Source: an uncultured Bacteroidales bacterium (GTDB lineage: Bacteria > Bacteroidota > Bacteroidia > Bacteroidales > FEN-979). Taken from it: a DNA stretch of 64,000 nt. Positions 7,501-64,000 of the stretch are shown here, piece after piece. The notes under the pieces are model-generated. The model was not told the origin of the DNA and did no database searches. It worked only from the letters and a program-made list of their open reading frames with translations. The stretch covers positions 5,690-69,689 of the forward strand of contig CAIQUS010000060.1 in assembly GCA_903875045.1 (NCBI GenBank), written 5' to 3'. Positions within the stretch are counted from its first letter, which is position 1; each line of letters opens with the position of its first letter. A program made the translations under genes and the position numbers.

Positions 7501-9870
7501 ATGGGGTCACGATTTGTAAGGGAAACACGTAAATGTTTCTTTATTATCTGTCTGATTTGTATTTTTATCAATCCTGAGAAGTTGGCTGGGCAGCAAAAAA
7601 CTGTTACCTATTATGCTGATCCTTCAGCCATCCCGCCTGATTTGCCGATCACCATCAAGCACCTCAACGCCCATATCAGCTTCAAACCAGAGAAAAACCT
7701 TGTGGTTGGTACTGCAGAATTTTACTTTATTCCAAACCGGCAGCCAATCGATTCCATTGTTTTCCATGCACCGGATTTCAAGGTTACTTCCGTTAAGATA
7801 AATGACAAAGAGGTTAAGTTTCATCAAACCGGCAGCAATCTGGTTGTCCATCCTGATTCAGTGCCATGGAAATCACCTCTTAAACACATGGTATCAAGCC
7901 TGTCTTCCATACTTATCACTTATACCGCCACCCCGCTTGCCGGCCTGATATATTTTATCGGCTGGCAGCCAGGGGAGGAGGGCAAGCGCAAACAGATTTG
8001 GGCACACCGCCCCCATGGCTGGATTCCATACATAGACGGACGCATCACCGTCGATATGTTTATTACGTTTGATAGTAAGTCCAAGGTTTTTTCCAATGGC
8101 GAACGGATGGAGGTAAAGGAAAATCGTGACGGCACCAAAACCTGGCATTATGCCATGAAAAAGGATCACCCGTTTTTTTCCACATCATTGGTTATAGGTG
8201 ATTACAATTTTAAAAGCACAAAAACCTCACGCGGGGTACCACTTGAATTCTGGTACTATTCCGATATGCCCGAACGGGTTGGCACTACCTATATGTACAC
8301 CGAACGAATGTTCGATTTTCTTGAAAAGGAGCTGGGATTCAACTATCCCTATTCACAATACCGCGAAGCGCCTGTGATTGATTATATGTACGGAGCCATG
8401 GAAACCACTACCAGTACCGTATTTGGCGACTATATGCAGATCACACCAAGAGCCTGGTGGCAGCGGAATTATGTAAACGTAAATGTCCATGAACTCGCTC
8501 ATCAGTGGTTTGGAAATTGTGTGGCGCATTACGTGAACAGAGATGTATGGCTTACAGAGAGTTTTGCCACCTATTATGCCAAAATGTTTGAAAAGAGTAT
8601 TTTCGGGGACGATTATTATCAAAATATCCGAAATGATGAAATGCGCCTTACCTTCGAGGCAGCTAAAAATAATGATTATCCCGTTGGTGGAAGCCAGGGC
8701 GGGGTTCAGCGGATATATCAAAAAGGTTCCCTGGTTCTGGAAATGCTTAACACTGTGATGGGTGACCGTGCTTTTCGGGATGCTGTTCAGTCTTATTTGA
8801 ATAAATTTGCCTTCGGGTATGCCGAAACAAGCGATTTTATGCGATGTGTTTATGAGGCATCAGGAAAACCCTATAACTGGTTTTTCGACCAATGGATACT
8901 CCGGGGTGGTGAGCCAGAATACCTTGTGAAGGATTCTGTTTCAAATGATTCACTGGAAAACAGATATACGATCTTTAGGATCTGGCAGGTGCAGAAAGTC
9001 AATGAATTGAATGGACTTTTTAAAATGCCGGTTGAATTTGAAGTCCATTACCAGGATGGTACCAGCGACCGGGTGAAAACGTGGATTGAAAAACAATATT
9101 CGGAGGTTTCTGTGCCAAATCCCCAAAAGAAGCCGATAAGGTTTTTGCTGTTTGACCCAAACCGGAAAATCCTGAAAAAAGTAACATTTGCAAAAACTTT
9201 TGAAAATCTCATTGCCCAGGCAGTGAATGCAGACAACATGGTTGACCGGTATGATGCATGGATGGCGCTGCGGCCAGAGCCGGTAGCCAGAAAATCCGAC
9301 TTTCTTATCTCTGCATTCCGCAAAGAAACATTCTGGTTGATCCGGTCGGAGATCCTACAGCAACTTGCGTACGACAAATCTCCGGAGTCAGTGGAGGTAT
9401 TCCGGCAGGCCTTGCACGACAAGGATGCCAATGTACGGAGAACCGCTCTCATGACGCTAAACCCGGTACCGGAATTGCTTCAGAGCACAGTGGAAGCGTT
9501 GTTGTACGATTCGAGTTATCTGAATGTGGAATATGCACTGCAGGCGCTATGTGTCTCATTTCCAAAAAATGTTGATCAGTATCTTGACCTCACCAGGGAC
9601 ATGGAGGGGTGGCGTGGAAAGAATATCAGGATGATGTGGATTGCTGTTGCCCTTGCCAATGGGAAAACGGAATATCTGCCTGAACTCATCAGCTATAGTA
9701 GCCCTAAGTTCGAATTCGAGACCAGAATGAATGCGTTTAATCTTTTGAAAAAGCTAAAATACAGCGACCCTGAAACAAAAAAATACGCTGAAGGTGCCAG
9801 TAAACATTGGAATTATAAACTGAGTGGCGCTGCAAAGGAATACTTGAAAGAGGTGAAAATTGAAAATTAG
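7501..9870 (+). CDS. M1-family zinc aminopeptidase with C-terminal HEAT-like repeats
   Basis: 789 aa with a signal peptide. 'VHELAHQWFGN' HEXXH plus a downstream 'WLTESFATY' glutamate, which is the gluzincin M1 signature. Confidence 0.85.
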   Translation: MGSRFVRETRKCFFIICLICIFINPEKLAGQQKTVTYYADPSAIPPDLPITIKHLNAHISFKPEKNLVVGTAEFYFIPNRQPIDSIVFHAPDFKVTSVKINDKEVKFHQTGSNLVVHPDSVPWKSPLKHMVSSLSSILITYTATPLAGLIYFIGWQPGEEGKRKQIWAHRPHGWIPYIDGRITVDMFITFDSKSKVFSNGERMEVKENRDGTKTWHYAMKKDHPFFSTSLVIGDYNFKSTKTSRGVPLEFWYYSDMPERVGTTYMYTERMFDFLEKELGFNYPYSQYREAPVIDYMYGAMETTTSTVFGDYMQITPRAWWQRNYVNVNVHELAHQWFGNCVAHYVNRDVWLTESFATYYAKMFEKSIFGDDYYQNIRNDEMRLTFEAAKNNDYPVGGSQGGVQRIYQKGSLVLEMLNTVMGDRAFRDAVQSYLNKFAFGYAETSDFMRCVYEASGKPYNWFFDQWILRGGEPEYLVKDSVSNDSLENRYTIFRIWQVQKVNELNGLFKMPVEFEVHYQDGTSDRVKTWIEKQYSEVSVPNPQKKPIRFLLFDPNRKILKKVTFAKTFENLIAQAVNADNMVDRYDAWMALRPEPVARKSDFLISAFRKETFWLIRSEILQQLAYDKSPESVEVFRQALHDKDANVRRTALMTLNPVPELLQSTVEALLYDSSYLNVEYALQALCVSFPKNVDQYLDLTRDMEGWRGKNIRMMWIAVALANGKTEYLPELISYSSPKFEFETRMNAFNLLKKLKYSDPETKKYAEGASKHWNYKLSGAAKEYLKEVKIEN

Positions 9871-9873
9871 CAA

Positions 9874-11130
9874 TTGAAAACGAAAAAGTTTCTTACCCGG
9901 ACAGTACTGCTCGTATCGTTTGTGAGCCTTTTCACCGATATTGCCAGTGAAATGCTTTATCCGATCATGCCTGTTTACCTTAAATCGATAGGGTTTTCTG
10001 TTTTACTGATAGGGATTCTGGAAGGAGTGGCTGAGGCAACCGCCGGGTTAAGCAAGGGTTATTTCGGGCATCTCTCGGATATCAAAAAACGGCGTGTTCC
10101 ATTTGTGCGTGCCGGTTATATGCTGAGTGCCTTTTCAAAACCCATGATGGCCGTTCTTACCTTCCCGTTATGGATATTTTTTGCCCGGACCCTCGACCGG
10201 TTTGGCAAAGGAATCCGAACAAGTGCCCGCGATGCCATGTTAAGTGACGAAACTACCCCGGAGCACAAAGGAAAAGTGTTTGGCTTTCACCGTTCGATGG
10301 ATACAACCGGCGCTGCCATTGGGCCAATTCTGGCTTTGATCTATCTGTGGTTTTATCCCGGCCAGTACAAATGGATGTTCGTCATAGCATTCGTTCCCGG
10401 CCTCATCGCCATTGCGCTTACATTTTTATTGAAGGATAAGGTTACAGGGTCACAGGGCCACAAGGTCACAGGGCCACAAGGTCACAGGGTCACAAAGTCA
10501 CAAGGTCGCCACATCATCACATCATCAAATCATCATATCGGCTTTTTTTCCTATTTGAAATACTGGTCGCGTGCTTCCTCCGGATTCAGATTTCTGGTTG
10601 CAGGGTTACTTGCGTTTACTCTTTTCAACAGCTCCGATGCTTTCCTTCTGCTGGCACTTAAAGAGCAAAACCTTTCCGATACCATGATGATCGGTGTTTA
10701 TATCTTTTACAATCTTGTTTATGCATTTTTTGCATATCCGGTTGGCGTCCTTGCCGATCGTATCGGGCTCAGAACCATGATGATCATCGGTCTTTTCCTC
10801 TTTGCCTTTGTTTATACAGCCATGGGATTTGCCTCCACCCTGACCATTTTCGGCCTACTCTTTTTTCTATACGGGATTTATGCCGCCTGCACCGAAGGAA
10901 TATCCAAGGCGCTCATCTCGAACATGGCAGATCAGGCCGATACCGCCACCGCCATAGGGTTCTTTAACAGCCTGGCAAGCATATTCACCCTACTTGCAAG
11001 TTCATTGGCCGGGGTGCTGTGGTACTCCATCGGGCCAAAGGCCATGTTTATGATTTCAGGGATCGGGGTTTTTGCGGTGGCGTGTTACCTGTTGTTTGTT
11101 TGGAACCACTTCACAGTGAGAAAGGTATGA
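9874..11130 (+). CDS. MFS transporter carrying a 32-codon repeat-derived insertion in its central loop
   Basis: 418 aa, TTG start, 12 predicted TM segments in a 6+6 layout. The loop segment 'VTGSQGHKVTGPQGHRVTKSQGRHIITSSNHH' is encoded by 12 tandem octamers. Confidence 0.8.
   Translation: MKTKKFLTRTVLLVSFVSLFTDIASEMLYPIMPVYLKSIGFSVLLIGILEGVAEATAGLSKGYFGHLSDIKKRRVPFVRAGYMLSAFSKPMMAVLTFPLWIFFARTLDRFGKGIRTSARDAMLSDETTPEHKGKVFGFHRSMDTTGAAIGPILALIYLWFYPGQYKWMFVIAFVPGLIAIALTFLLKDKVTGSQGHKVTGPQGHRVTKSQGRHIITSSNHHIGFFSYLKYWSRASSGFRFLVAGLLAFTLFNSSDAFLLLALKEQNLSDTMMIGVYIFYNLVYAFFAYPVGVLADRIGLRTMMIIGLFLFAFVYTAMGFASTLTIFGLLFFLYGIYAACTEGISKALISNMADQADTATAIGFFNSLASIFTLLASSLAGVLWYSIGPKAMFMISGIGVFAVACYLLFVWNHFTVRKV
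10441..10536 (+). repeat. Tandem octamer array (12 units, 96 nt) inside the MFS coding sequence, in frame
   Basis: gttacagg gtcacagg gccacaag gtcacagg gccacaag gtcacagg gtcacaaa gtcacaag gtcgccac atcatcac atcatcaa atcatcat, read directly from the sequence. Confidence 0.95.
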
Positions 11131-47667: not shown

Positions 47668-47710
47668 CCCTTTACCATTTCACCATTTCGCCATTTCGCC
47701 ATTTTTCCCC
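47667..47710 (+). repeat. Tandem octamer array (CCATTTCG type, ~5 units) starting at the stop codon of the upstream gene
   Basis: ccatttca ccatttcg ccatttcg ccattttt cccc, read directly. Confidence 0.9.
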
Positions 47711-47815: not shown

Positions 47816-49273
47816 ATGGAATCCCCATCAAACAAAATCCTGGATGAAGTAACGCAGGGTGATTACAAATATGGATTTGTCACGGATATCGAAACGGAAT
47901 TTGCCCCCATCGGACTTTCTGAGGATACCGTCCGTTATATCTCTCAAAAGAAAAACGAACCTGAATTTATGCTTCAATTCAGGTTAAAGGCTTACCGTCA
48001 CTGGCTTACCATGTCGCAGCCCCATTGGGCACACCTGAACATTGAACCGATCAAATTTCAGGATATTATTTTTTACGCAGCCCCAAAGAAAAAGCAGGAG
48101 TTGTCGAGTCTCGATGAGGTTGACCCTGAATTACTGGCAACCTTCAACAAACTGGGGATTTCACTGGATGAACAAAAAAAACTGGCCGGTGTGGCCGGTG
48201 TGGCAGTGGATGCTGTTATTGACAGTGTGTCGGTTAAAACGACGTTTTCAGAGACCCTGTCAAAGCATGGAATTATCTTTTGCTCTTTCAGTGAAGCAGT
48301 TCAAAACCATCCCGACCTGGTGAAACAATACATGGGGTCGGTGGTTCCTTACACGGATAACTATTTTGCCGCGCTCAATTCTGCTGTTTTCAGCGACGGC
48401 TCTTTCTGCTTTATTCCCAAAGGTGTGCGCTGCCCTATGGAATTGTCGACCTACTTTCGTATCAATGCTGCCAATACAGGTCAATTTGAACGTACGCTTA
48501 TTGTTGCAGAGGAGGGGGCTTATGTGAGTTATATGGAAGGTTGTACGGCACCCCAGCGTGATGAAAACCAGCTTCATGCCGCCATTGTCGAAATTGTGGC
48601 CATGAAAGATGCTGAAGTAAAGTATTCAACCGTGCAAAACTGGTATCCCGGCGACAAAAACGGGTTGGGCGGGATTTATAATTTTGTGACGAAACGTGGC
48701 ATCTGCAAGGGGAATAATTCCAAAATCAGCTGGACACAGGTGGAGACAGGCTCATCGATCACCTGGAAATATCCAAGCTGCATCCTGCTTGGAGATCATT
48801 CGGTAGGGGAGTTCTATTCCGTAGCTGTTACCAACAACCACCAGCAGGCCGATACAGGTACAAAAATGATGCACCTTGGTAAAAATACACGCAGTACCAT
48901 CATCTCCAAAGGAATTTCGGCCGGCAAGAGCAATAACTCTTACCGCGGACTGGTACGTATTTCGAAGAATGCGGTCAATTCCCGGAATTACAGCCAATGT
49001 GATTCACTCCTTCTTGGTGCCAAATGCGGGGCACATACCTGGCCGTACATACAGGTTGACAATAAATCATCTATTGTGGAACATGAGGCCACCACTTCGA
49101 AAATATCCGAAGATCAGCTCTTTTATTGCCAGCAACGCGGTATCTCGGCAGAAAGCGCCATCGGCCTCATTGTAAACGGTTATGCAAAGGAGGTGTTGAA
49201 ACAACTGCCCATGGAATTCGCAGTGGAAGCTCAGAAACTGCTGTCTATTTCACTGGAAGGGAGTGTGGGGTAA
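47816..49273 (+). CDS. sufB: Fe-S cluster assembly scaffold protein SufB
   Basis: 485 aa. 'YKYGF', '[14 protein letters not shown]', 'VQNWY' and '[21 protein letters not shown]' are SufB hallmarks. Confidence 0.95.
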
Positions 49274-49326
49274 TGTGATGATGTGATAATGTGATGATGT
49301 GATAATTTGAAGATTTGAGTTTTTTT
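49271..49326 (+). repeat. Tandem octamer array (16-nt super-period) in the sufB-sufC spacer, beginning in the sufB stop codon
   Basis: taatgtga tgatgtga taatgtga tgatgtga taatttga agatttga gttttttt. Confidence 0.9.
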
Positions 49327-59944: not shown

Positions 59945-60015
59945 GCGGCAAAGGTAATATAATTTTAGTACTATGCAATGCAAGGTAGTATAATTTATGA
60001 TTTTTTAACAGAAGA

Positions 60016-60141
60016 GTGGGCGAGTGGACGAGTGGGCGAGTGGGCAGGTGAACGGGTTGACGGGTGAACGGGTGAACGGGTAAACGGGTAGACGGGCGAA
60101 CGGGTAAACGGGTAAACAGGTGGACGGGTGAACAGGTGTGG
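60016..60141 (+). repeat. Tandem octamer array, G-rich orientation, ~15.75 units (left arm of the four-helix-bundle cassette)
   Basis: gtgggcga gtggacga gtgggcga gtgggcag gtgaacgg gttgacgg gtgaacgg gtgaacgg gtaaacgg gtagacgg gcgaacgg gtaaacgg gtaaacag gtggacgg gtgaacag gtgtgg. Confidence 0.95.
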
Positions 60142-60205
60142 ATAAAAGTTATTAACAAAGGGCTTACTTTAATCATTTTTTCTGATAAAGCATTAAATAA
60201 AAGCA

Positions 60206-60556
60206 ATGTATGCACATAAAAAGTTATCTTTATGGCAGGGGAGTATGGATCTTGCGGTAATTGTTTATCGGGTTACAGCCGGATTCCCGAAATCCGAAAT
60301 GTTTGGATTATCAAGCCAGGTCAGGAGATCCGTAGTATCAATTCCAGCAAACATCAGTGAAGGAGCAGGCCGTGGCAGACCGAGAGAATTTATCAGGTTT
60401 CTAAGAATATCAAATGGTAGTCTTTCCGAACTTGATACACATTTGGATCTGGCTTTCCGACTCAATTATATCGAAGCGGAGACCTTTAACGATCTCACGG
60501 GCAAAATGAGAAAAATCAGTGCACAAATTTCCGGTTTGATCAGATCACTGGAATAA
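60206..60556 (+). CDS. Four-helix-bundle protein (23S rRNA intervening-sequence protein / S23p family, the fold family of DGR Avd)
   Basis: 116 aa. 'LAVIVYRVTAGFPKSEMFGLSSQVRRSVVSIPANISEGAGR....EFIRFLRISNGSLSELDTHL' is the characteristic signature of this family. Confidence 0.85.
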   Translation: MYAHKKLSLWQGSMDLAVIVYRVTAGFPKSEMFGLSSQVRRSVVSIPANISEGAGRGRPREFIRFLRISNGSLSELDTHLDLAFRLNYIEAETFNDLTGKMRKISAQISGLIRSLE

Positions 60557-60573
60557 AAACCAAAATATCATTT

Positions 60574-60645
60574 CACCCGTTTACCTGTTTACCTGTTTAC
60601 CTGTTTACCTGTTTACTTGTTCACTCGCCCACTCGTCCACACATT
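60574..60645 (+). repeat. Tandem octamer array, C-rich orientation, 9 units (right arm, mirror image of 60016-60141)
   Basis: cacccgtt tacctgtt x4 tacttgtt cactcgcc cactcgtc cacacatt. 60622-60640 is the exact reverse complement of 60024-60042 (19 nt). Confidence 0.95.
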
Positions 60646-60650
60646 TTCCT

Positions 60651-60658
60651 TAACTTTG
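60651..60658 (+). promoter_or_regulatory. Candidate -7 box (TAacTTTG) for sufE
   Basis: taactttg lies 21 nt upstream of the ATG at 60679, directly after the array. Confidence 0.4.
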
Positions 60659-60678
60659 CTCCTTAAATATAGCCTCCT

Positions 60679-61104
60679 ATGACCATCCCAGAAAAAGAAT
60701 CCCAAATCATCACCGAGTTCGCCATGTTCGACGACTGGATTGATAAATACAATTACCTTATTGAACTTGGGAAAACACTTAACGTGATCGAAGAACAGTA
60801 TAAAACAGACCAATACCTGATTACCGGATGCCAGTCGAAGGTGTGGCTTCACGCATCCATCAGGGAAGGCAAGGTGGTTTTCACCGGCGACAGCGATGCC
60901 ATCATCACAAAAGGGATTGTGAGCCTGCTGATACAGGTGCTTTCCGATCAAACCCCCGATGAAATCATCCAGGCAAAACTGGAATTTATCGACAAGATCG
61001 GTTTGCAGGAACACCTCTCACCAACCCGCAGCAACGGACTTTCGGCGATGATCAAACAGATGAAACTTTATGCCACTGTATTTAAAATGAAACGCGGAAA
61101 CTAA
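60679..61104 (+). CDS. sufE: SufE-family cysteine desulfuration (sulfur acceptor) protein
   Basis: 141 aa. 'DWIDKYNYLIELGK' and 'ITGCQSKVWL' (persulfide-accepting Cys) motifs. Confidence 0.85.
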   Translation: MTIPEKESQIITEFAMFDDWIDKYNYLIELGKTLNVIEEQYKTDQYLITGCQSKVWLHASIREGKVVFTGDSDAIITKGIVSLLIQVLSDQTPDEIIQAKLEFIDKIGLQEHLSPTRSNGLSAMIKQMKLYATVFKMKRGN

Positions 61105-61108
61105 CTAA

Positions 61109-61150
61109 AACCGTTCACACCTTTATCTCCACCCGTTACCCGTCCACCCT
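61109..61150 (+). repeat. Degenerate C-rich octamer array after the sufE stop
   Basis: ccgttcac acctttat ctccaccc gttacccg tccaccct. The 8-nt phase is weak but recognisable and the words are shared with neighbouring arrays. Confidence 0.5.
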
Positions 61151-61156
61151 ATAATT

Positions 61157-61240
61157 CCGTACCTACGGCACGGAAAATGGTTATGATCTATGACTGGCTA
61201 CCAAAAGTTGGCTCCTACGGAGCCGGAAGGTAAATTTGCC
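61157..61240 (+). repeat. 84-nt double-hairpin element, copy 1
   Basis: Hairpin 1 is ccgtacc-tac-ggcacgg and hairpin 2 is ggctcc-tac-ggagcc, 53 nt apart. 72 of 84 positions are identical to copy 2, and both hairpins are 100% conserved. Confidence 0.85.
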
Positions 61241-61242
61241 TG

Positions 61243-61346
61243 CCACTCGTCCACTCGTCCACTTGCCCACTCGTCCACTCGTCCACTTGCCCACTCGCCC
61301 ACTCGTCCACTCGCCCACTTGCCCACTCGCCCACTCGCCCAACTGA
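61243..61346 (+). repeat. Tandem octamer array, C-rich, 13 units, abutting the ATPase stop codon
   Basis: ccactcgt x2 ccacttgc ccactcgt x2 ccacttgc ccactcgc ccactcgt ccactcgc ccacttgc ccactcgc x2 ccaactga. Confidence 0.95.
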
Positions 61347-62470
61347 TCACCCTAAAACCTCCGGATAATTCTTCCGATTAACTTCCCTGAATGTGAAAGG
61401 TTGATATTCTTTGCTAAAACTTTCAGGTATCCGGATTCTCTTTGATGGACTCCATTTAAACTCAAAAGCCTCAAATTCGGCATTTTTTTCCCGCACCAGG
61501 TCAACTTCCTGTTGCTGGTGTGTCCGCCAGAAATAATAAGAGGCGATATTGTCCTCATATTGATCTTTCTTGATGATTTCGCTAACGAGGTAGTTCTCCC
61601 ACAATTTTCCGGTATCATCACGTAATGCAAGTGGGTTGAACTGATTGATCAGGGCGTTTCTTATACCGTTGTCCCAAAAATAGACCTTTCGGGATTTCTT
61701 TATTTCATTGCGTTGATTCCTTGCAAGTGATGGCAGTGTGAAAATTACAAACGACTTTTCCAGAAGATCGAGGTAGCGGATCACGGTATTCCGGTCGCAT
61801 CCTGCAGTTTCTCCCAATTCGGTGAGGGAAACTTCACCGGTGATCTGGAGTGCAAGTGCTTTCAATATTTTGGGAATGATGCTGGGTTTTCTGACCGAAT
61901 CCAATGACAAAATATCCTTGTACAGGTAATCTCCTGCAAGTTCATGAAGGAGCTTTGGCTTTTCCAGTTGTGAAAGAACAATTTCCGGATACATGCCGTA
62001 AATTAGCCGCTGTTCAAGCAGCCGGTTTTCTTCCATTTCCGAAAAAGCCCCGGTCAGTTCTGAATAAGAAAACGGGTGAAGTTGAAACTCAAGTTTTCTT
62101 CCGGTAAGCGGCTCGTGAATAGTGTCCCGTAACCCCAGTGCAGAGGATCCTGTGACAATCAGTTGAATATCCTTCAGATGATCAGTAATCAGTTTTAGTG
62201 TAACGCCAATGTTTTGAATCCGCTGTGCTTCATCGATGATCAGCAATTCCTTGTTTCCAATCCTGTGCTTGAGTTCTGTCGAACCTGGACGGTTGAGAAA
62301 CTGTTCCACATCCGGTTCATCACAATTCAGGAATAAAAATGATTTTCCGATGATTTTGCCAATTCCAGCGCCAGTGTTGTTTTCCCGACCTGCCGTGCAC
62401 CGGTGATGTGAACTGCTTTCCCACTGAAAAGGTATTTTTCAATGACCGCCTGAAGCTTCCTCTGAATCAT
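61347..62470 (-). pseudogene. AAA+ ATPase (AAA_14 + DUF4143 type) interrupted by a -1 frameshift in a homopolymer
   Basis: The N-terminal 47 codons 'MIQRKLQAVIEKYLFSGKAVHITGARQVGKTTLALELA...' (Walker A) stop at 62327-62329. The +2 frame continues 'KIIGKSFLFLNCDEPDVEQFLN...IIDEAQRI...' into the 320-aa ORF. The switch maps to the A4 run at 62354-62357. Confidence 0.75.
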
Positions 62471-62532
62471 AATATATGAATTAATTCACAAGTTTAATAT
62501 AAAATTCATGAATAGGTTCCTATATTTTAATA

Positions 62533-62572
62533 AATGGCGAAATGTCGAAATGGCGAAATAGCGAAATCAGAT
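62533..62572 (+). repeat. Tandem octamer array (AATGGCGA type, 5 units)
   Basis: aatggcga aatgtcga aatggcga aatagcga aatcagat. This is the reverse complement of the CCATTTCG word family. Confidence 0.9.
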
Positions 62573-62587
62573 TTCCTGTAAATAATC

Positions 62588-62671
62588 CCGTACCTACGGC
62601 ACGGAAAATCATTATAATTACTGACCGGCTATCAATATTTGGCTCCTACGGAGCCGAAAGGTAAATTCGCC
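62588..62671 (+). repeat. 84-nt double-hairpin element, copy 2
   Basis: Same two hairpins with the same 53-nt spacing as copy 1. It is flanked by inverted arrays (62533-62572 and 62663-62694). Confidence 0.85.
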
Positions 62672-62766
62672 ATTTCGCCATTTTCCCATTTTCCCTGTTT
62701 ACCCGTTCACCTGTTTCCCTTTCCACCTGCCCACTCGCCCACTTGCCCACTTGCCCACCTGGTCAC
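62663..62766 (+). repeat. Tandem octamer array, 13 units, with a stepwise gradient of unit types, abutting the oxidoreductase stop codon
   Basis: aaattcgc catttcgc cattttcc x2 ctgtttac ccgttcac ctgtttcc ctttccac ctgcccac tcgcccac ttgcccac x2 ctggtcac. Confidence 0.95.
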
Positions 62767-63407
62767 CTCCTCAACAATTTAAACGCATGTCCCCACTCAT
62801 TCCTGAGAAATCCCGGGATACACCACAACATACACAGTGGTTCAATAGCTCTTGCAGCCTCAACCGCACCCATATCCTCAGTTTCCCAGCCAAACTGGCC
62901 GAGGATGGCAGTTACCTGTCTTTTTGCCTCCGGATCGTTACCGCATATAAACATGGATGGTTTGATCCCGCCGAAATCGGGGTTGATCATAAAGTTGTTT
63001 CCCACGCTGTTAAAGGCTTTAACAAACCGTGCTTCGGGCACCACCAACTGCAACTGTTCCATCTGGGAACTGCCGAGATTGGTGTAATATTGCAGTACTC
63101 CGTTCACGGGGGCAGCATCGGCAATAGGATTCGTGGTATCAATCACGATCTTTCCTCGAAAATTGGTAATACCCGCAAGTTGGAGGGCTGCTTCTGCCAT
63201 GTTTCCTTTTACGGCAAGGACGATGATTTCTCCGAATGCAGCAGCATCTCTGAAGCTCCCTGTAACGGCATTGTTCGTTTTGAGCCATTCAGCCAGTTTC
63301 GAAATGTCTCTTGTGCCCAGCATTACGTCATATCCGTGTTTCAGGAAGCCACTTCCCAGCATCTGGGCGACAACGCCTGAACCTAAAATTCCGATTTTTG
63401 TTTTCAT
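62763..63407 (-). CDS. NAD(P)-binding oxidoreductase (NADPH-dependent F420 reductase / ProC-like Rossmann family)
   Basis: 214 aa. The N-terminal 'KIGILGSGVVAQMLGSGFLKHGYDV' dinucleotide fold and overall similarity recalled to NpdG-like proteins. Confidence 0.7.
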   Translation of the reverse strand: MKTKIGILGSGVVAQMLGSGFLKHGYDVMLGTRDISKLAEWLKTNNAVTGSFRDAAAFGEIIVLAVKGNMAEAALQLAGITNFRGKIVIDTTNPIADAAPVNGVLQYYTNLGSSQMEQLQLVVPEARFVKAFNSVGNNFMINPDFGGIKPSMFICGNDPEAKRQVTAILGQFGWETEDMGAVEAARAIEPLCMLWCIPGFLRNEWGHAFKLLRR

Positions 63408-63456
63408 TGTTTTTGAAGGTTTGGTTTATGATTGGTTAGTATACTTGGGTTTGTTG

Positions 63457-63507
63457 GCAAGTGGGCGAGTGGGCGAGTGGACAAGTGGACGAGTGGGCGG
63501 GTGGGGG
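63457..63507 (+). repeat. Tandem octamer array, G-rich orientation, ~6 units
   Basis: gcaagtgg gcgagtgg gcgagtgg acaagtgg acgagtgg gcgggtgg ggg. Confidence 0.9.
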
Positions 63508-63630
63508 AAATTAGTTGTTCCTGGATTTCCACCCGGCAATTACCTCTTTCAAATGAACCCTTCTCTGTTGGCAAAGGAGGAGAGTTTTTGGGGTAAAGTG
63601 TTGTATGTCCTTCCGAGCGCATGGATCGAT

Positions 63631-64000
63631 TCATGAAGAAGTATTATTATCCCCATGTGTCCACCTGCCCACTCGTCCACTCGCCCACTTGCCCACCTTT
63701 TTCCTTATCCTCCCGACCACCGAAAACCTCGACATATCTATCAGTTTATGATTCAGCAGATAGGTAATCACCCTTTTTTCGATTTCATGGTGGAGCGGAA
63801 GGAGGATTGCTATGAGAAAAATTTTAATAAGCAGTACTTTCCAGGGTTCGCCATGAGTGATCTCTTCTATCCTGTGATCAGCCAGTAAAATAATGAACTC
63901 AAAGAGGAAGATGAATGAGAAGAAACCCAGCATCCTGATGATCCACTCGGGAACCTTCAGGCTCCCAAGCATGATCAATAATACAAATGCCGAAAGGATC
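63631..64000 (-). CDS. C-terminal fragment of a membrane protein; reading frame is open to the window edge and its last ~16 codons lie in an octamer array
   Basis: There is no in-frame stop between 63978 and 64000. Two hydrophobic helices are visible. The tail '...KKVGKWASGRVGRWTHGDNNTSS' is translated from the array at 63653-63700. Confidence 0.35.
   Translation of the reverse strand, partial: ILSAFVLLIMLGSLKVPEWIIRMLGFFSFIFLFEFIILLADHRIEEITHGEPWKVLLIKIFLIAILLPLHHEIEKRVITYLLNHKLIDMSRFSVVGRIRKKVGKWASGRVGRWTHGDNNTSS
63653..63700 (+). repeat. Tandem octamer array, C-rich orientation, 6 units (inverted partner of 63457-63507)
   Basis: ccatgtgt ccacctgc ccactcgt ccactcgc ccacttgc ccaccttt. Its reverse complement has the same unit order as 63457-63507. 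Confidence 0.9.

Follow-up and report, generated by a model that had tools for sequence, protein, structure and literature searches.

A gene for a major facilitator superfamily (MFS) transporter carries an in-frame array of twelve 8-nt repeat units in the predicted linker between the two halves of the protein. The gene lies in a 64-kb stretch of DNA from an uncultured Bacteroidales bacterium (64,000 nt of contig CAIQUS010000060.1, here called the window; position 1 is its first letter, and array and gene coordinates are in window numbering). We consider it likely, with a probability of about 0.7, that the array is a lineage-specific repeat expansion at the DNA level that is tolerated in a disordered linker and filtered by selection for the reading frame. 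Non-triplet repeats in bacterial genes are usually read as phase-variation switches, and this locus shows another outcome: a non-triplet array that persists for long, in frame, in a disordered segment of a conserved membrane protein and is repeatedly rebuilt with different units.

The array (10441-10536) consists of twelve contiguous, phase-locked octamers, that is, 96 nt or 32 codons of the open reading frame (ORF) 9874..11130 (+). In order, octamers 1-6 are GTTACAGG, GTCACAGG, GCCACAAG, GTCACAGG, GCCACAAG, and GTCACAGG, and octamers 7-12, ending at 10536, are GTCACAAA, GTCACAAG, GTCGCCAC, ATCATCAC, ATCATCAA, and ATCATCAT; translated in the frame of the ORF, they give residues 190-221, VTGSQGHKVTGPQGHRVTKSQGRHIITSSNHH. 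Two unit families are present. Nine GTCACAGG-like octamers form sub-array A (10441..10512, +; VTGSQGHK VTGPQGHR VTKSQGRH), in which neighbouring units differ by 13 transitions and two transversions, and three ATCATCAC-like octamers form sub-array B (10513..10536, +; IITSSNHH). GTCACAGG passes into ATCATCAC without loss of register. Tandem Repeats Finder (TRF) reported period 8/16 at 10438-10507 and period 8 at 10510-10539 (unit CACATCAT), and the units are degenerate, with a match level of 79% at period 8. The array has 68 self-matches out of 88 at lag 8, a score that none of 100,000 shuffles reached (shuffle maximum 40) and that just three other regions of the window attain, each of them an intergenic octamer array. 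The sequence, TRF, and the shuffles thus confirm what a first-pass annotation of the window had reported, namely twelve octamers spanning 96 nt and 32 codons in frame in an MFS gene.

The period argues for a repeat that arose in DNA and not in the peptide. Self-matches number 68/88 at lag 8 versus 48/72 at lag 24, and with a period of 8 nt, and not just of 24 nt, each octamer comes to be translated in all three codon phases. An 8-aa repeat selected at the protein level needs only a 24-nt period, so the strong 8-nt period marks the repeat, as far as its sequence tells, as one of DNA-level and not peptide-level origin. The GTCACAGG family has a higher-order period of 16 nt, with a perfect tract of 2.6 copies of GGTCACAGGGCCACAA (42 nt, 10448..10489, +; the longest exact lag-16 run). 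This is the longest perfect tract at any period, that at period 8 being only 18 nt (2.25 units), and it is the predicted most slippage-prone part of the array, where slippage by 16 nt would put the gene out of frame. All three plus frames of the array are free of stop codons, and all three minus frames contain them; without stop-free sense frames, an octamer array could not survive in a gene.

The host protein (418 aa; TTG start as listed among the ORFs) matches the Pfam families MFS_1 (PF07690, 134 bits against a cut-off of 33.4, E 7e-39) and MFS_1_like (PF12832, 47 bits against a cut-off of 25.2). It has more than 8000 homologs, and its orthologs share 57-89% core identity across Bacteroidota; even in Flavobacterium and Chitinophaga the gene retains about 60% identity. 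The genomes closest to the window locus are freshwater Bacteroidales metagenome-assembled genomes (MAGs). No NCBIfam model scored above its cut-off for the transporter subfamily, and relatives in the PDB were distant matches only (QacA and MdfA).

An AlphaFold2 model of the transporter, built on 49 orthologs (mean predicted local distance difference test score (pLDDT) 85, predicted template modelling score (pTM) 0.84), places helices within residues 9-183 and 226-417, which form two six-helix halves, with a coil between them at residues 184-225 (10423..10548, +) and pLDDT below 50 for residues 192-215. The sixth transmembrane helix (TM6; residues 166-183, 10369..10422, +; DSSP on model m2f44df1be558) ends in the conserved left anchor LTFLLKDK; the strongest Kyte-Doolittle peak covers residues 172-182, and L182, T183, F184, and L186 are invariant in ortholog alignment A1. 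Beyond the coil, a short helix at residues 226-233 with the conserved right anchor GFFSYLKYW leads into the seventh transmembrane helix (TM7) at residues 236-263 (together 10549..10662, +; DSSP H226-233, H236-251, and H255-263), and F225, Y230, and W231 are likewise invariant. In this model, the array (residues 190-221) fills the central linker that follows TM6, and the predicted coil and its low pLDDT bear out the earlier placement of the repeat in a disordered loop between TM6 and TM7. In MFS proteins generally, no part is longer or less conserved than the TM6-TM7 linker, which can accommodate insertions and which canonical MFS topology puts in the cytoplasm. Residues 186-235 contain eight Lys and Arg versus one Asp or Glu, and this basic character fits the cytoplasmic side, where by analogy with the canonical topology the linker would lie.

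Comparison with orthologs indicates that the linker was once short. We located the conserved anchors LTFLLKDK and IGFFSYLKYW in 160 ortholog loci from genome and metagenome collections, 153 of them distinct. The DNA between the anchors is 27-42 nt long in 111/153 distinct loci, most often 30 nt, and most orthologs have 9-12 linker residues; in the other 42 loci it measures 45-174 nt, mostly with an 8-nt period. At 96 nt, the window linker stands about 60-66 nt above the basal state, and the array-free orthologs, among them those of Flavobacterium and Chitinophaga, have no loop homologous to its 32 residues. Judged from these lengths, the window array is an expansion of a short native linker and not an ancestral loop. 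The first-pass annotation had taken the array for an insertion relative to orthologs, and the short linkers of the 111 loci agree with it, as does the lack of a homologous 32-residue loop in array-free orthologs. Among the 44 loops of at least 40 nt, lag-8 self-matching is significant (p<0.01) in 20, and of lags 3-12, lag 8 scores best in 25. Annotators should be aware that neither the length nor the sequence of this linker is informative about orthology.

When the loops are ordered by a neighbour-joining tree of the flanking protein core, different arrays appear at the same site in close relatives. The two nearest relatives (both 89% core identity) have CGGACARG and CATCAGCN arrays where the window has its own. 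In one of them (L002), the loop consists of (CGGACARG)x13 followed by (CATCAxCA)x7, 174 nt in total, and in the other (L051), 28 nt of unique sequence precede (ATCAGCMC)x8.5 in a loop of 96 nt. The CATCAGCN and CATCAACA arrays, which are related to sub-array B, thus occupy the same 3' part of the loop in L051 and L002. This ATCAKCAC-type 3' array is common to the window and its two nearest relatives, whereas the 5' array is different in all three; its presence in all three suggests that the 3' array probably predates their split. At 79-87% core identity, eight relatives (L001, L126, L093, L092, L095, L088, L084, and L085) have GTNACARG arrays like sub-array A at the same site. Other loops carry CACCAGTT (L003 and L017), CTCGCCAA (L107), or a 16-mer (L019). 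By this comparison, the linker is a clade-wide, recurrent hotspot at which arrays with different units arise and replace each other.

The source of one of these arrays may lie in the linker itself. Array-free loops often start with GTCAC... (Val-Thr), as in L010, L005, and L006, and the leading unit of sub-array A resembles these native codons at the loop start. In-situ amplification therefore fits at least as well as import, and sub-array A may have grown from native codons in place instead of being brought from elsewhere. The idea that intergenic arrays colonise coding DNA where a disordered loop tolerates them accordingly survives in part: the linker is tolerant, but the many unit families and their recurrent formation in situ do not fit a single colonisation.

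Turnover is also visible between strains and sister species. Two alleles of one sister species, P0004 (419 aa; L001 and L081) and P0011 (411 aa; three assemblies, L165-L167), encode proteins that are identical apart from an 8-aa gap, and their DNA has no mismatch over 7.2 kb; they are set apart solely by an indel of 24 nt, or three octamers, in a stretch of the homologous array that forms a perfect higher-order repeat of 2 x 24 nt, and the contigs, at 235,557 and 235,533 nt, also differ by 24 nt. An indel without any substitution implies that copy number changes before substitutions accumulate, so array copy number appears to change quickly, with the frame preserved in the one variant observed. 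Four strain variants of another sister species are all 418 aa long, and the loop holds five of the six residues at which they vary. L051 and L164 differ at 3/96 nt in the array and at 6/1161 nt elsewhere (Fisher p=0.026), and protein pairs with at least 97% core identity differ mainly in the loop, which is the only site of difference in several pairs whose cores are 100% identical. The linker is thus a hypervariable, hydrophilic, low-complexity segment. The window array itself recurs without a nucleotide change in L161, L162, and L163, three assemblies of other samples that differ from the window at 0-2 positions over 2.3-4.3 kb, and a fourth contig encodes the same protein; with populations so nearly clonal, the comparison of array identity is low in power.

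Throughout this variation the reading frame is kept. A gain or loss of one or two units is predicted to end the protein at residue 223-268, in line with the proposal that a single-unit change would switch the gene off. All 153 distinct loci, including all 42 with expanded loops, are in frame, a pattern which indicates that the reading frame of the linker is under selection. Twelve units had been read as a sign of selection for an intact transporter, and the frame kept in all 42 expanded loops, together with the three-unit change in the sister species, speaks for that reading. The accompanying view that the frame is kept only by changes in threes is arithmetically right and yet not a general rule, since the length is a multiple of 24 nt in only 5/42 expanded loops; the frame is also kept by partial units and by unique spacer sequence.

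We propose that one process, which generates repeats of 8-nt period, is at work throughout these freshwater Bacteroidales genomes, in intergenic DNA as in the MFS linker, probably through replication slippage or unequal exchange on 8-nt units and on 16- and 24-nt super-units. At this locus it would have lengthened a native linker of about 10 aa between the MFS halves to 32 aa. Inside genes, the products of such a process would nearly always be lost, and the disordered MFS linker would let them persist, provided that the units are free of stops in the sense strand, that the peptide is hydrophilic, and that the total length stays in frame. Within the gene, arrays would then survive at this linker alone because it is disordered, because their units are stop-free in the sense frames, and because frame-breaking lengths are removed. 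Selection for the frame would pass in-frame changes, such as a three-unit indel, or combinations that restore the frame, and substitutions and unit replacement would erode and rebuild the arrays while the transporter stays intact throughout.

Four points weigh against this explanation. Plain slippage does not account for the dominance of period 8. No significant excess of arrays was found in the flanks of relatives with expanded loops (5/42 versus 10/111 loci by autocorrelation and TRF, Fisher p=0.56), a comparison of low power because the flanks are short (1.5-3 kb) and mostly coding. The neutrality of the peptide is assumed, and repeats rich in His, Gln, Ser, and Thr could be co-opted. Finally, the perfect 16-nt x 2.6 tract would give frameshifts on slipping, in which case the array is not harmless.

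Octamer arrays are not confined to the MFS gene. In the 64-kb window, 11/17 TRF regions have period 8, 16, or 24, and an autocorrelation scan found period 8 in seven arrays and period 7 in one, whereas periods 5, 6, and 9-12 gave no array. Outside the MFS gene, the period-8 arrays occupy spacers between genes or the ends of ORFs; they occur on both sides of sufB and in almost every spacer at 60-64 kb. Period-8 arrays are thus a genome-wide feature, and period 8 is characteristic of the window. An origin of the 8-nt period as a "footprint" of transposon target-site duplications was considered, and no transposase was linked to the arrays within the 64-kb window. One array of ATGTGATG lies between sufB and sufC (49271..49318; TRF); it overlaps with the stop codon of sufB, none of its three plus frames is free of stops, and its unit is the reverse complement of the sub-array B unit, that is, the same family on the opposite strand. 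A second array of the suf operon lies just upstream of sufB (47674-47704). A cluster of intergenic octamer arrays spans 60014..63698 (60014-60138, 60575-60640, 61243-61341, 62532-62567, 62666-62761, 63456-63505, and 63659-63698; TRF). The window has at least six unit consensuses, whose distance to GTCACAGG at the best rotation and strand is 3-4 of 8, and only the CACATCAT unit is common to the MFS loop and an intergenic array. A core motif shared by all unit families was considered and dropped; at the best rotation and strand, the consensuses lie 3-5 of 8 apart.

Several further observations concern the arrays of the 60-64 kb segment. Two of them, at 62663-62766 and 60569-60640, are single unbroken 8-nt registers in which the unit sequence drifts stepwise across several "families" (TTCGCCAT > TTTCCCTG > TTCACCTG > CCCACTCG > GTCACCTC), the period being kept as the sequence changes. 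An element of about 90 nt occurs twice (61151-61240 and 62582-62671, 86% identity) and has two hairpins that include CCTACGG (RNA fold -29.8 kcal/mol, z -2.0). An octamer array directly follows each copy, and the second is also preceded by one (62532-62567, AAATGGCG) that is the reverse complement of the downstream array (TTCGCCAT). An Rfam scan of the element and of the whole window gave no family match; the element could be a small mobile element, or one resembling repetitive extragenic palindromic (REP) sequences, that is tied to the arrays. A 115-aa ORF at 63631-63978 (-) without a Pfam match takes its last ~25 codons from the GCCCACTC-type array 63659-63698, and it is either a second array in coding DNA, as a C-terminal tail, or an over-called ORF. 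The AAA_14/DUF4143 ATPase ORF (61347..62309, -) matches the AAA_14 profile without its initial ~60 positions, and a stretch resembling a Walker A motif is found outside the ORF, upstream at ~62380-62420; the locus 61347-62470 may be a frameshifted or split gene in this array-rich segment.

The MFS gene is flanked by an M1-peptidase/HEAT gene and a gene for a protein with a type IX secretion system (T9SS) tail. The closest relatives each have an octamer array, built from a unit of its own, immediately ahead of the MFS start in the spacer that follows the peptidase gene (L001 2954-2989, L002 2930-2976, L003 2930-2971, L004 2957-2983, L005 2975-2999, and L006 2965-2992). The spacer is only 3 nt long in the window and holds no array. 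A weak heptamer repeat (TGAAAAT x 3.9, 70% matches) runs across the M1-peptidase stop and the MFS TTG start at 9854-9880. A search for other proteins with VTGSQGHR-type repeats, which is insensitive to short arrays, returned only seven ORFs (P0147-P0153) of 57-110 aa, made up for the most part of such repeats and without a Pfam domain. These are most likely spurious ORFs over intergenic arrays, and this insensitive search gave no evidence that the GTCACAGG-unit family has entered other real genes. Arrays of (GGTCACAG)n are open in all sense frames and so are called as genes in public metagenomes; they are a likely source of spurious "hypothetical proteins".

A more tentative possibility is that an undescribed mutational process with an 8-bp "ruler" seeds octamer arrays of many sequences throughout the genomes of this clade and expands them, and that the MFS linker is its in-gene reporter. 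If so, linker arrays would turn over between species and change by three units between otherwise identical genomes, and the perfect 16-nt tract would yield frameshifted, transporter-null cells at a measurable rate, a heterogeneity that may or may not be exploited.

Such null cells are central to a different explanation, in which the array is a contingency locus, 8- or 16-nt slippage switches the transporter off and on, and the switching is itself the selected function. The locus has some of the expected properties: the units within ORF 9874..11130 are non-triplet, so that a change of one or two of them truncates the protein; the 42-nt period-16 tract is perfect, and its slippage would go out of frame; and the homologous array of the sister species is length-polymorphic between otherwise identical genomes. 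However, the only recent length change seen is in frame, the four strain variants of the other sister species differ by substitutions only, and the array of the window is unchanged in three further assemblies. When ~5.8 billion clustered proteins were searched with the product of a +2-unit frameshift, no OFF allele of this species turned up. The search did surface three orthologs in public assemblies that are frameshifted exactly within the loop, none by a clean unit change. One of them (L168) has a 97-nt loop, and adjacent genes on the same contig are also split, which makes a sequencing error likely; a second (L169) carries +1 nt in a 31-nt loop without an array. In the third (L170; JGI 3300063112, around 800-830), the whole linker is deleted between two 8-nt direct repeats of TTCTTCTC, whose copies derive from the conserved LTFLL and GFFSY codons flanking the loop; the resulting frameshift splits the gene into ORFs of 238 and 150 aa.

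The structure and position of the array also differ from what phase variation would lead one to expect. A long tract of identical units is missing, as the units are degenerate and only 18 nt are perfect at period 8. ON and OFF alleles that differ in unit number were not seen in consensus assemblies, which cannot see minority variants. Typical contingency genes are of the surface or restriction-modification type, unlike this transporter gene with its conservation across Bacteroidota. The array is neither a 5' nor a promoter tract and occupies codons 190-221 of 418, whereas simple sequence repeats (SSRs) tied to phase variation are enriched near the N-terminus and suppressed in mid-gene (Lin and Kussell, as cited in PMC4692102). 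Surveys tie phase variation to units of 1-5 nt (PMC4692102). We therefore did not retain the suggestion of a contingency or phase-variation locus, given the identical array in three assemblies, the lack of an OFF allele in the search, the degenerate units, and the mid-gene position, and we regard selected switching as improbable. The incidental production of null alleles by the array is plausible.

A selected protein feature would be another reason for an expanded linker. Here the His/Gln/Ser/Thr/Gly-rich segment would be kept for a function such as metal binding, regulation, or partner docking, and the repeat would be only the way in which it was built. CDF and ZIP metal transporters have His-rich cytosolic loops, and sub-array B and its relatives encode His-rich stretches (e.g., HQHISTSAHQH). 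Expanded linkers persist in 42/153 loci across the clade, and the VTGxQGxK motif recurs in orthologs at 79-87% core identity. The closest relatives, however, encode unrelated peptides at this position (RTGGQADK repeats, HQPISPSA repeats, or no repeat), and most orthologs manage with 9-12 residues. Strain-level variation concentrates in the loop, as under weak constraint, the AlphaFold2 model predicts no structure for it, and conservation is at the level of the 8-nt unit and not of the codon. A selected peptide is thus an unlikely reason for the array, and expansion at the DNA level followed by selection for the frame is the reading that we prefer.

An assembly or sequencing artefact, in the form of a chimeric join or a collapsed repeat, has a negligible chance of being the explanation, for although tandem repeats are prone to mis-assembly and the related P0137 ends inside an array, probably at a contig end, the sequence recurs identically in three consensus assemblies from other samples and so is not chimeric, the 96-nt array is below read size, the host ORF is intact and in frame, and homologous arrays occur in many independent MAGs.

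The locus offers a natural system for measuring the rate and spectrum of octamer-array change, in which the frame filter separates in-frame from out-of-frame events, and for asking what sets the 8-nt period in these genomes. It also helps to calibrate how readily an SSR within an ORF should be equated with a contingency locus in MAGs.

Among known systems, the arrays of the window share most features with dispersed families of short tandem repeats, in which one unit length dominates many loci that are mainly intergenic or near ORF ends, copy number varies between close strains (here the 24-nt indel between L001 and L165), and arrays are rare in coding DNA. The short tandemly repeated repetitive (STRR) heptamers of cyanobacteria also occur within the functional gene for RNase P RNA in heterocystous species. 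Our literature search turned up no account of octamer arrays in Bacteroidetes; the analogues that it did return are from other phyla and include STRR-like heptamers of cyanobacteria, GGGAATC-type heptamers of Xanthomonas and Nostoc (PMC4692102), and the octameric "HOOF-Print" variable number tandem repeat (VNTR) loci of Brucella (PMC1183211). Unlike the dispersed families, the arrays described here have an 8-nt unit and appear to comprise many unit sequences that share a period rather than one or a few consensuses, and one of them is translated in frame in a conserved membrane protein.

With the SSR contingency loci of Haemophilus, Neisseria, and Campylobacter, the array shares a non-triplet unit inside an ORF, so that a one-unit change shifts the frame, and a homologous array in a sister species that is length-polymorphic. 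It differs from them in its degenerate units, in its mid-gene rather than 5' or promoter position, in its conserved transporter host, and in having no ON/OFF polymorphism in unit number; those octanucleotide SSRs that have been described for H. influenzae lie upstream of genes (PMC2651432), whereas this array lies inside one. As in other MFS proteins with 12 transmembrane helices, the central loop is long and is here predicted to be a coil with low pLDDT. Ordinary divergence of MFS loops proceeds by slow indels, in contrast to the length variation by a non-triplet repeat and the species- and strain-level turnover at this linker. As in coding VNTRs, a tandem DNA repeat gives a periodic peptide (8 aa per 24 nt) with in-frame copy change; coding VNTRs, however, normally have units divisible by three, whereas the 8-nt unit is read in three phases and only units that are stop-free in one orientation can persist. 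Dispersed SSRs of fixed period and variable MFS linkers are thus both known, and a translated, non-triplet array with clade-wide turnover appears to be a new combination of the two in this lineage.

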